Shown here in pieces: positions 40,573 to 43,776 of a stretch of 64,000 nucleotides of DNA. A model generated the notes under the pieces. The model worked only from the letters and a program-made list of their open reading frames with translations, searched no databases and was not told the origin of the DNA. Made by a program: the position numbers and the translations under genes. Source of the DNA: a virus (taxonomy: Duplodnaviria; Caudoviricetes); IMG/VR virus record IMGVR_UViG_3300031867_000024, positions 1-64,000 of that record. One strand, 5' to 3'. Within the stretch, counting starts at the first letter, position 1. Every line of letters begins with the position of its first letter.

Positions 40573-42174
40573 TCATAGGTTTTCATTTGGATTATAGTTT
40601 CTTACTTGGTATTGTATATTGACTTTTATCTTGTCATTATGGTTGCTTGCATTTTGCAGGTACGAAGTGATTGTAGGCTCCGACACATACGAATAGCTCT
40701 GCGGATCAGGAACTGTCGTAGGTGCGCTAATATACGTGAAGTATGTCTTGCCACTTAATACGACTTCAAGCCTCAATGGGATCTGTCCACTTGGCTGGTC
40801 TCTTGGATCGTAATATATCCAGTCAACATCAATGGTAAGACAGCCATTGTTGTCAAGATATACTTCATCATTCTGAGATGTATGCATGATAGGACCAAAT
40901 GCTATTGAGTAATCTCCAATAGAATTAGCAGAAACCCCATGCTCATCCATTGTCATAATTGATGAAAGTATATAATTCTGCAATGTTACTTTCTTACTGT
41001 GATTGTTTATCATATAATCACAACTATATGAAACACTCGGTTGTCCAACTACGGCAGCTTCAACAGAAGCAGTACAATGAGCGTCTGCAACTGCTGACAG
41101 TGCACCTGTGCCTACGCTCCTGTAAATGGTATAATCGCTGTCGTTAGCATTGAACGTATTCACATAGTCCCCATAATGGAAGTGTATGAAACTTGCGCTA
41201 TTGCTCGATGGCAACGATATGTCTTCTGATAATGCGTTCCAGTCGGCGGCTACAGGAGTGGAGTTGCTTCCGAATGTTCTCTGATAGTACCACGTCTGCT
41301 GTCTCTCGTATGTTATGTTAGTTTGAACCTCAGACGACTTCCGTAATTGCATACTAACCGCACCGCTAAGACCACTTACATCAACCTTGTTCCAATAATT
41401 GTACTGTTCTGATGGCCCGTATATAATCTGCGTTCCATTGTTCTCAATGTAAGCCTCATAGTCTGATGGATTGTTTATAGGATTTATGTTCTGAAGATTC
41501 AGGTCGCTATCTATGCACAATATCCACAGATAGTTGTAGTTGGAGTCATTGATGATCGTGTTGTTGCTTGGTATGCTTACGAACTGCTGAGGAGTATCTG
41601 CCGTAGTGGAAAAAGCGTAGAACCATGAAACATTGTCTGTGCTTCCAGATGCACTAGTTATCATACGTACCATAGGGCTCTCAATAGTTCTGTCATACTC
41701 ACAATAGTATCTGTTAGGCCCGTCTAAGACCTTCGTATAAAGATGGTCGTGTGTTGGTATAGTATTGTTGGACGGATTCTTATAGAAAATCTCATAGTCC
41801 TGCACATCTTCATTCACAAGCTGATTATCGCAGTACATCCTAAAGTGCAAGTATGGAGTATTAGGATTGTAATAAATCAGCTGTGTGTCTGATGACAGAG
41901 TACCCCATCCAGTGACAGGCACTGCCGTGCTTGCGCTGAAGGCATATTCCCAATCATACGTATGCTGAGGCTCTGGATTGATAGGGTCAGGATCATCTGG
42001 CTCGTTTATCGCCCACGCCTTCGTTATCAGCCTGTTCCCTGTGTAGTTGTGGTTAATGCCAAGCACGTCTGCTATTGCTGCCGTTACGCACATGTGTATG
42101 TTGACTATCCCAGCAAGTGACTCTATAAGCCCCTCCTTGAACAGCTGCAAGTATGTGTATACCCTCCTTTTCAT
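40573..42174 (-). CDS. beta-rich repeat (Ig-like) virion/adhesin protein
   Basis: Three repeats W.YAFS....P / WYYQRTF...P; N/S/T/Y-rich. Confidence 0.55.
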   Translation of the reverse strand: MKRRVYTYLQLFKEGLIESLAGIVNIHMCVTAAIADVLGINHNYTGNRLITKAWAINEPDDPDPINPEPQHTYDWEYAFSASTAVPVTGWGTLSSDTQLIYYNPNTPYLHFRMYCDNQLVNEDVQDYEIFYKNPSNNTIPTHDHLYTKVLDGPNRYYCEYDRTIESPMVRMITSASGSTDNVSWFYAFSTTADTPQQFVSIPSNNTIINDSNYNYLWILCIDSDLNLQNINPINNPSDYEAYIENNGTQIIYGPSEQYNYWNKVDVSGLSGAVSMQLRKSSEVQTNITYERQQTWYYQRTFGSNSTPVAADWNALSEDISLPSSNSASFIHFHYGDYVNTFNANDSDYTIYRSVGTGALSAVADAHCTASVEAAVVGQPSVSYSCDYMINNHSKKVTLQNYILSSIMTMDEHGVSANSIGDYSIAFGPIMHTSQNDEVYLDNNGCLTIDVDWIYYDPRDQPSGQIPLRLEVVLSGKTYFTYISAPTTVPDPQSYSYVSEPTITSYLQNASNHNDKIKVNIQYQVRNYNPNENL

Positions 42175-42623: not shown

Positions 42624-42670
42624 AGCCTTGTGTTTTCTCGTTAACCACTTGAACATGATGCAAATATAAC

Positions 42671-42702
42671 AAAAAAAAATGACTGTTTCACAACAGTCAT
42701 TC
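42671..42702 (-). terminator. intrinsic terminator after the solitary repeat
   Basis: AAUGACUGUU GUGA AACAGUCAUU + U tract. Confidence 0.8.
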
Positions 42703-42732
42703 ATGAGTTGTTATTGCCTATGATTATGGTTT

Positions 42733-42759
42733 GTTTCAATCCACGCACATAAGTGCGAC
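42733..42759 (-). CRISPR. solitary type I-C-like CRISPR repeat (no array)
   Basis: GTCGCAC TTAT GTGCG TGGATTGAAAC; matches I-C repeat ends with a shortened hairpin. Confidence 0.7.
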
Positions 42760-43014
42760 TTATTTGCATAAGAAGTTTCTACAAGCCTCGTCCGTCTTAA
42801 ACTTCACATACTTCCCTTCCGTATAGTACTTGCAACGCACGCAGAAGTACGTGCCGTCGTTAGCCCTGTTCATGAACTTCCTGTCCTCCACGGCATGAGC
42901 GCACTCTTCGCAGTAGTGGACTGCTGGCTTAGGCTTCTCCTCCTCCTTGAGCAGGCCCTGCTTTTTCAGGGCGTACTCCATCGCTATGTCCCTCTTCTTT
43001 GCCGTCTTTGTCAT
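42760..43014 (-). CDS. small Cys-rich (Zn-binding) protein
   Basis: CEEC...CVRC...C; stop abuts the CRISPR repeat. Confidence 0.6.
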   Translation of the reverse strand: MTKTAKKRDIAMEYALKKQGLLKEEEKPKPAVHYCEECAHAVEDRKFMNRANDGTYFCVRCKYYTEGKYVKFKTDEACRNFLCK

Positions 43015-43033
43015 ACAAGGTACAAGGTACAAG
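43014..43033. repeat. 7-bp tandem repeat TACAAGG x2.9 at an ORF junction
   Basis: TACAAGG TACAAGG TACAAG. Confidence 0.7.
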
Positions 43034-43133
43034 TCCGTACATTAGCCACATATCAAACATCTCCTGCAAGTCATCTGGAGAGAGATAATGATCCGTTAAG
43101 TCAATAATCGGTTCCATGCCTGCAAGCTCCATA

Positions 43134-43370
43134 CTACCACCAATATATGAGTCTGTGATTGACAACCCTTCCATGCTTGTCGAGGTAGTCCTGAAGGAAC
43201 CTGAAGTACCTCGCCCTCATTGCACGGTGAAGAGCCTCGCCGTCAATGCAGGATGCGTCATAACTACCATTGTGATAAATGGTATACATGGTTATCGAGT
43301 CCCTGCTATTCTTTATCGTATACAGGCTCGCAAACTGCCTGCGCAGCTTCTTCAGCAACTTGTTCTTCAT
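43134..43370 (-). CDS. small basic hypothetical protein
   Basis: 78-aa ORF just after the tRNA-like element. Confidence 0.55.
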   Translation of the reverse strand: MKNKLLKKLRRQFASLYTIKNSRDSITMYTIYHNGSYDASCIDGEALHRAMRARYFRFLQDYLDKHGRVVNHRLIYWW

Positions 43371-43386
43371 TGTCTTTTCTGTTTAG

Positions 43387-43491
43387 AGCCGAGGACAGGA
43401 GTCGAACCTGCGCTTCCCCCACAAAACCCGAAAAAGAGTGGAACATGCCATCGGTCGTGCATGTGACGAAACCTCTACGTCGTACCTCGGC
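43387..43491 (-). tRNA. aberrant tRNA-like RNA (10-nt anticodon loop, long variable arm)
   Basis: GCCGAGG/CCUCGGC acceptor, GACG/CGUC D stem, CAUGC/GCAUG stem with ACGACCGAUG loop, GCAGG UUCGACU CCUGU T arm; -7 promoter at 43584-43591. Confidence 0.6.
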
Positions 43492-43776
43492 AAGTTGGCG
43501 CACCGTTGTGCGCCTTGAAATTAAAACGTAAATCTATGAACAAATCAATACTGAATGTCATCACGACTCAGCTTCCTTCATCACAAAGATAGCTATTGTA
43601 ACATACTTGTCAAACTTTTAGAGCACCTTATTTCACTCTATATTAAAATTGTGCGTTTTAGGGAAGTAATAATATAATAATTTGTATAGAAGTGTATAAC
43701 ATTCGTACAATAAGGCAATAAAAAACTTCCAATCATCACGACTGGAAGTACATAAAAAAGATGAGAAATAATATTG

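Follow-up and report, generated by a model that had tools for sequence, protein, structure and literature searches.

The window, by which we mean the whole 64,000-nt stretch of DNA analysed here, is part of a 97,791-bp phage record that comes from bovine gut metagenomes and has relatives in sheep gut. The phage is crAss-like: its large terminase, portal and major capsid proteins match the corresponding PHROGs, and the capsid protein is 52% identical to those of Bacteroides intestinalis crAss-like phages. Because the first 344 bases of the record are repeated at its end, the genome is complete at ~97.4 kb (a circular assembly or a terminal repeat), even though the record is classed as 'linear'. 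Far from the locus described below, positions 27721-27797 (minus strand) gave a gathering-level Rfam match to the RAGATH-1 hammerhead ribozyme (58.1 bits).

The genes around the locus all lie on the minus strand. The features collected in Table 1 follow one another in the order promoter, tRNA-like RNA, 78-aa ORF, a short extra stretch, Cys-rich ORF, CRISPR-like repeat and terminator. The promoter motif of this unit was assigned to what we take to be the Bacteroidota consensus, TAnnTTTG (-7 promoter box). Terminator-like sites were found only upstream of the promoter and at 42702-42677, with none inside the unit, and the repeat-holding unit is delimited by the TATATTTG box; a DUF5675 gene (42623-42171) starts ~25 nt past that box. 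In metatranscriptome contigs from one run, a relative was covered over 42937-43371 and the repeat lay in no contig, contigs being unable to show where an RNA ends.

Table 1. Features of the repeat-holding transcription unit and its downstream border (window positions)
Feature	Position	Strand	Basis
Bacteroidota-type promoter of the unit: TTTG, 19 nt, TATCTTTG	43584..43614	-	sequence reading
Aberrant tRNA-like RNA at the 5' end of the unit	43391..43495	-	sequence; ARAGORN at relaxed threshold only
78-aa ORF, same transcription unit as the repeat	43134..43370	-	ORF list
84-aa Cys-rich ORF (CxxC...CxxC); stop abuts the repeat	42760..43014	-	ORF list
Solitary hairpin-minimised type I-C CRISPR repeat (psiR), 27 nt	42733..42759	-	sequence read, fold, match to natural repeats
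'Pseudo-spacer': second AAAC (42732-42729), then backbone 3'-UTR beginning CATAATCATAGGCA	42703..42732	-	comparison with relatives
Intrinsic terminator of the operon: 9-11-bp stem, GUGA loop, U9	42671..42702	-	fold, terminator scan and conservation
-7 box TATATTTG of the next gene, directly after the terminator	42651..42658	-	sequence; conserved in relatives

The tRNA-like RNA is ~105 nt long, with a 7-bp acceptor stem (GCCGAGG/CCUCGGC) and a canonical T arm (GGUUCGACUCC); at its relaxed threshold ARAGORN calls it as a tRNA that either contains an intron or has an anticodon of 2 nt, there was no match to the Rfam tRNA family, and the element is conserved in the related contigs L206, L207, L211 and L212. 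The 78-aa ORF is present in all relatives and matched no PHROG or Pfam family and nothing in the PDB. For the 84-aa ORF there was a weak PHROG match to a DksA-like zinc-finger protein (E = 0.006), no Pfam match and no PDB homologue, and its homologues were confined to close relatives. None of the operon ORFs resembles a known Acr or a solved structure when searched against PHROGs, Pfam and PDB sequences. L206 and L207 lack the ~117-nt stretch between the two ORFs (43016-43132, minus strand), and L211 and L212 have it. An acidic frame of 67 aa opens in this stretch and overlaps the gene that follows; a search for homologues of this frame found none. Downstream of DUF5675, a 533-aa protein (40573-42174, minus strand) is the most divergent part of the region when the window is compared with L211, at 10-20 differences per 50 nt as against 0-5 in the operon, a pattern that would fit a host-recognition protein.

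Read on the minus strand, the repeat unit is GTCGCAC-TTAT-GTGCG-TGGATTGAAAC. The stop codon of the 84-aa ORF (TAA, 42762-42760) is followed by the repeat at the very next base. As RNA the layout is GU / CGCAC-UUAU-GUGCG / UGGAUUGAAAC, and folding gave the repeat hairpin together with a 3' hairpin at -24.7 kcal/mol (z = -3.1 against shuffles). A preliminary description of this DNA had reported a solitary type I-C repeat in transcript orientation straight after an ORF stop, without a second repeat or a cas gene nearby, and we could read exactly this. The stem has 5 bp (CGCAC/GUGCG), not 7, and is closed by a UUAU tetraloop. The 16-mer GTGCGTGGATTGAAAC has a single exact copy in the window and one further match with three mismatches; by chance, 0.5 matches would be expected in the window at up to three mismatches, and we put the chance of an exact copy at ~3e-5 by our own estimate. 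With one mismatch allowed, the 12-mer GTGGATTGAAAC occurs at one site in the entire 97,791-bp record. The repeat search found no array and no second copy in the complete genome, nor was there a Cas5d-family match among its products. The unit is therefore a lone repeat on a mobile element with neither array nor cas gene nearby. Rfam returned only a sub-threshold hit to CRISPR-DR9 (15.4 bits, E = 5). A possible degenerate second repeat, the GAAAC of the terminator loop, was rejected, as it lies 48 nt from the repeat end and does not fit an array spacing of 64-68 nt.

To compare the unit with natural repeats, as the preliminary description had proposed for Prevotella, Bacteroides and Porphyromonas, we followed a scan of genomes with a short form of the unit, which gave a Candidatus Segatella albertsiae MAG contig, and then sampled 201 genomes of that genus. 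Arrays whose repeats end in GTGGATTGAAAC were carried by ~20 of the 201, and Cas5d was found in 17 of those 20. The repeats of these arrays are 32-33 nt long and the spacers mostly 32-36 nt, and the 11-nt handle was identical in the main repeat of every array that was read (15 of the 17 cas-locus stretches plus two further array loci). One class of repeat, found in G095, G205 and G026, reads GTCGCAC-CC-CATGT-GG-GTGCGTGGATTGAAAC or a close variant of it. The phage unit equals the 32-nt repeat of one such array (L199, from G095; the same class in G205 and G026) at all 23 of the 23 positions that it retains: the 5' GTCGCAC, the stem base and the 11-nt handle have been kept, and two upper stem pairs and one loop base (5 nt) have been trimmed. 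The CG/CG stem base and the handle UGGAUUGAAAC are thus identical to those of natural type I-C repeats. The comparison bore the proposal out for genomes of the Prevotella/Segatella group, which is likely to be the host group of the phage.

The positions that were kept are those reported to matter to the processing nuclease. Recognition by Cas5c/Cas5d rests on the base of the stem and on the 3' overhang, in which the UGG just after the cut counts most (PMC8524198, PMC5965381), and Cas5c cuts after nucleotide 21 to leave an 11-nt handle, with changes in the loop and the 5' overhang tolerated (PMC8524198, PMC5965381). Because Cas5c reads the stem base and the 3' overhang and the loop is dispensable, the trimming appears to have spared the reported recognition elements, while the shorter 5-bp stem departs from the canonical 7 bp. 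Placed by analogy with this literature, a Cas5c cut would fall between 42744 and 42743 and leave the 11-nt handle at 42743-42733.

Behind the repeat, 30-32 nt (42732-42701/42703) separate it from the terminator. After the second AAAC this segment runs CATAATCATAGGCAATAACAACTCATGA and is followed directly by the terminator hairpin, ATGACTGTT-GTGA-AACAGTCAT, with a 9-bp core that reaches 11 bp with G-U and A-U extensions (42702-42677) and with nine T behind it (42679-42671). The hairpin was also called by a consensus terminator scan. The preliminary description had treated the repeat, the segment and this hairpin as a complete crRNA mimic. The hairpin with its U tract does exist, but it is the ordinary terminator of the operon and is kept in relatives both with and without the repeat. 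Since relatives that lack the repeat have part of the segment as well as the terminator, the terminator and much of the pseudo-spacer are phage backbone and not a captured spacer.

These relatives were reached by protein look-ups of the flanking ORFs and by aligning the region with contigs that came from other runs; a blastn search of the phage collection gave none, and IMG/VR relatives found through the DUF5675 protein were at most 57% identical, with no repeat nearby in any of them. Five states were seen at the repeat site. The window type recurs without a difference in L213, a JGI rumen contig, and in short contigs of two other bovine studies. L211 is ~96% identical over the operon and has the repeat intact, with one AAAC missing, which gives a 4-nt shift behind the handle; a perfect 27-nt repeat is not significant here, as the operon differs by only ~4%. 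L212, L219 and L221 (~86% identical) lack the repeat and have 26 unrelated nt in its place, after which come CATAATCATAGGCA, then CATGA, then the same terminator. In the sheep contig L206, 42703-42760 is replaced by ~960 nt holding a separate terminator and an opposite-strand KilA-N gene, with the shared terminator resuming exactly at 42702, and in L207 a KilA-N gene occupies the repeat site in the forward orientation. The presence of the repeat thus varies between strains. From these comparisons the site is a hot spot for accessory genes, and the unit acquired or lost there is essentially the 27-nt repeat itself.

The 26 nt found in place of the repeat (L212:843-868, also in L219 and L221) resemble the downstream promoter region (TATATTTGCA..ATGT.GG). 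Because of that resemblance, the shared UTR and terminator of the repeat-free siblings could form a small promoter-driven RNA of their own.

The trimmed design is not confined to this phage lineage. A scan of IMG/VR with the 16-nt repeat core gave at least 113 loci, and among these listed matches at least 56 were solitary 27-nt units (GTCGCAC-TTCG/TTCA-GTGCG...), at least 22 were arrays, at least 13 were solitary full-length units and at least 22 were of other kinds. Trimmed units are therefore the largest single class among the IMG/VR matches listed, most of the at least 56 loci belonging to one phage family in which the unit lies between genes near a 669-aa ORF; a related Segatella contig has a 667-aa ORF that is SbcC-type ATPase-like by sequence reading. 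In members of the TTCG-loop family (L150:1779-1805; L011, L049, L065), whose flanks were read by eye, behind the 27-nt unit comes a conserved 21-nt foldable stretch (GACATT-AAA-AATGTC), and after it a tail of one of two kinds that contains a terminator-like hairpin. A genome scan found one copy of this family in a Phocaeicola vulgatus assembly.

Related units of other lengths and loops were found further afield. The Segatella MAG contig has a 26-nt unit with a TAT loop that abuts the stop of a 68-aa ORF. Psychrobacter namhaensis (G003) has a 26-nt minimised I-C unit (L151:7474-7499), followed by a hairpin that is terminator-like when read by eye, and on another contig ~180 copies of the repeat core in an I-C array. 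Units of 29 nt occur in a Negativicutes MAG and in a Sphaerochaeta MAG. A different stem class, represented by GTCGCTC-ATACT-GAGCG... and GTCGCTCC-CTAG-GGAGCG..., lies between a stop codon and the next ribosome-binding site. Across the minimised units the loops vary freely, the handle is constant and both sides of the stem change together (A-U to U-A), giving two complementary stem classes, CGCAC/GUGCG and CGCUC/GAGCG; no minimised unit with a third stem, GTCACAC/GTGTG, was found in IMG/VR. The pairs were counted by eye, as MAFFT misaligned the 5' halves. As the search patterns fixed both stem halves, this recurrence shows, at the level of sequence, units in two natural repeat classes and not unbiased covariation.

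Taken together, these observations are best explained by a hairpin-minimised solitary I-C repeat that serves as an RNA anti-CRISPR decoy of the Racr kind, a reading to which we give a probability of about 0.5. The preliminary description had offered two functions, a Racr or a regulatory crRNA mimic. The former holds, on the strength of the handle, the stem base, the match to the Prevotella group and the RacrIC1 layout, which the sense orientation, the abutment to a stop codon and the placement between promoter and terminator all reproduce; the latter, in which the RNA acts as a guide or regulator, is not supported. What the sequences show directly is the anatomy of the unit, its match to repeats of the host group, its place within a transcription unit, its varying presence among strains and the recurrence of the trimmed design. 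We infer for the unit transcription, binding and cleavage by Cas5c and an effect on immunity, as follows. Transcription from the promoter at ~43600 would put the repeat at the 3' end of the RNA of a small accessory operon. Should the host have a type I-C system, its Cas5c would bind the UGGAUUGAAAC overhang together with the base of the stem, with a probable cut at 42744/42743. This would release an RNA in which an authentic 11-nt handle is followed by ~30 nt of phage 3'-UTR and then by the terminator hairpin. Complexes without a useful guide would tie up Cas5c, Cas7 and perhaps Cas8c, and the pool of Cascade with real crRNAs would be lowered. In favour of a decoy, the repeat itself is the variable unit among relatives, and minimised I-C units of 26-29 nt recur in unrelated elements. 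Against it, the operon ORFs have no Acr likeness, and spacers give no link to a host: none of 589 I-C spacers from the sampled Prevotella-group arrays matches the phage. Only two of the 589 match any viral locus that was fetched, from which no PAM could be derived.

Foremost among the alternatives, though unlikely, is that the repeat is a neutral passenger, a piece of a host array or a repeat unit of another phage caught at a recombination-prone site and without function. The exchange at this site of the repeat for a KilA-N gene in either orientation or for 26 unrelated nt would fit such a history, and conservation among the few repeat-bearing strains is uninformative on the point. Decay, however, should bring random changes, whereas neither the handle nor the stem base has a single mismatch and a clean hairpin is left after the loss of 5 nt. 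Similar trimming with different loops in unrelated phages and bacteria also speaks against a remnant.

Next in order, and again unlikely, comes a weapon with one guide, of the mini-array or homing type, aimed at sibling phages. The native 3'-UTR behind the repeat would act as the guide, and host Cascade-Cas3 would attack co-infecting relatives that lack the repeat. The segment is, after all, backbone that is present in repeat-free relatives, and the 14 nt that follow the handle in L211, CATAATCATAGGCA, are preceded in L212, L219 and L221 by TTT, with C as their first base. In L. pneumophila TTT is the second-best PAM for I-C interference, and TTT + C is the '-1 slip' configuration of TTC. But the match to the only known repeat-free siblings ends after 14 nt, where an indel follows, and a 14-nt match would generally be too short for cleavage by Cas3. 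The extra AAAC of the window shifts the register and gives four seed mismatches, and a guide of 33-35 nt would enter the terminator stem. A second repeat is, moreover, lacking, and searches of IMG/VR, the JGI metagenomes and 401 family genomes gave no full protospacer. A more elaborate version is less probable again: here the conserved 3'-UTR would, by virtue of the lone repeat, guide the I-C Cascade of the host to siblings without it (TTT/TTC + CATAATCATAGGCA...), the AAAC duplication in the window would re-aim this guide at the parental repeat-bearing type (site after TTG), and one crAss-like lineage would hold a competition or homing cassette, made of one repeat and no protein, that evolves stepwise.

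We regard as quite improbable a regulatory crRNA mimic of the Cracr kind, in which the handle and a partly complementary pseudo-spacer would lead Cascade to repress a host cas promoter or that of a CRISPR-guarding toxin. The architecture of a psiR, a spacer-like stretch and a rho-independent terminator is that of CracrVA1, and type I-C Cracr candidates have been reported. The preliminary description had asked for the segment to be searched against host genomes (cas promoters, TTC PAM) and other phages, and we found no target in any of the collections used. We scanned the cas genes, leaders and flanks of 17 Prevotella-group I-C loci (10-19 kb each): the best PAM-proximal seeds did not exceed in length those of 30 shuffled versions of the segment, and a TTC PAM flanked none of them; the 9-10 or more PAM-proximal matches to a host cas or toxin promoter that mark a Cracr were not seen in these loci of the presumed host group. 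Nor did the 17 loci hold a solitary handle-like unit of the CreA/CreR kind outside their arrays, to which the phage unit could be likened. Two 20/21-mers of the segment had no match in IMG/VR, 26 nt of it with up to three mismatches had none in 401 family genomes, and there is no second site for it within the phage itself. One 20-mer had three matches in JGI metagenomes, in unrelated contexts, without a PAM and with nothing matching beyond 20 nt, which is about the number expected by chance on a rough estimate of our own; we do not consider them credible as targets. A Cracr needs a fixed PAM-proximal seed, and the reading is weakened because no target was found and because the register differs by 4 nt between the window and L211, both of which bear the repeat. 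Given also that the segment is partly present in relatives without the repeat, the proposal that it guides Cascade to a host promoter is not supported.

Least probable of all is a Cas5c-dependent processing site acting as a sensor or switch for phage gene expression, whereby the operon mRNA would be cut off from its terminator, or the tRNA-like and ORF part set free, in I-C-expressing cells alone: the unit does lie inside an mRNA directly after a stop codon, like the minimised units that precede a ribosome-binding site, but the idea is pure conjecture for which we found no precedent, and it is compatible with a decoy effect.

If trimmed units of this kind work as decoys, then counts of RNA anti-CRISPRs in Bacteroidota phages are underestimates, and the present unit would be, as far as the literature that we found goes, the first CRISPR counter-defence candidate of this kind from crAss-like phages. 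The units would also form a natural experiment that defines the minimal RNA for Cas5c, of use in the design of compact I-C guides. If they do not work, their recurrent trimming still wants an explanation.

The trimmed form probably explains why such units would be missed by published search rules. SRUFinder requires that a known repeat be matched over 90% or more of its length with an identity of 90% or more, and the phage unit has 27 nt against 32-33 nt, with an internal 5-nt gap; this deletion would break the alignment below the coverage threshold. That is a failure of the search rule and not of biology. In the portion of the Racr supplementary tables available to us, GTCGCACCCCGCACGGGTGCGTGGATTGAAAC and its kin are listed as I-C repeats and GTCGCACTT does not appear (PMC10651486).

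Compared with a canonical I-C repeat (PMC8524198, PMC5965381), the unit shares the 2-nt 5' overhang, the GC-rich stem base and the 11-nt 3' overhang UGGAUUGAAAC; it differs in its stem (5 bp against 7 bp), in its loop (4 nt against 5 nt), in its length (27 nt against 32-33 nt, ~32 nt in the usual format) and in standing alone, outside a periodic array. Like the virus-borne mini-arrays of inter-virus competition (PMC11656645), it is a host-type repeat in a virus with sequence behind it that resembles related viruses; those mini-arrays hold a spacer between two repeats, however, whereas this locus has a single repeat, with no more than 14 nt that match the known repeat-free siblings. With CracrVA1 (Liu et al., bioRxiv 10.1101/2024.10.29.618823) it has in common a single psiR, a spacer-like stretch and a rho-independent terminator. 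In contrast to a Cracr, the partial match to a host cas or toxin promoter that we sought was not found in the 17 loci, and the spacer-like stretch is backbone UTR; the reported hosts of Cracrs are Pseudomonadota, Bacillota and Actinomycetota, and not Bacteroidota (bioRxiv 10.1101/2024.10.29.618823).

The closest parallel is RacrIC1, a 34-nt full-length I-C unit in a Bifidobacterium prophage that lies 11 nt behind an acrIC5 homologue on one transcript (Camara-Wilpert et al. 2023, PMC10651486) and that rescued phage on a I-C strain, with a gain in titre of roughly four orders of magnitude (PMC10651486). Like RacrIC1 and other Racrs (PMC10651486), the crAss-like unit is a lone I-C repeat in a phage, without cas genes or an array, in sense orientation behind a small ORF on the same transcript, and by analogy it would be expected to sequester Cas proteins. 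It also has the likeness to host-group repeats expected of a Racr, at 23 of 23 positions and with the hairpin kept in shortened form, for a host group that is itself a deduction. It is unlike RacrIC1 in its length of 27 nt, its 5-bp stem and tetraloop, its home in a rumen phage and the lack of a recognisable acr neighbour, and it is a candidate only. RNA anti-CRISPRs, including one against type I-C, are already known; what is new here is the hairpin-trimmed form in a crAss-like phage.
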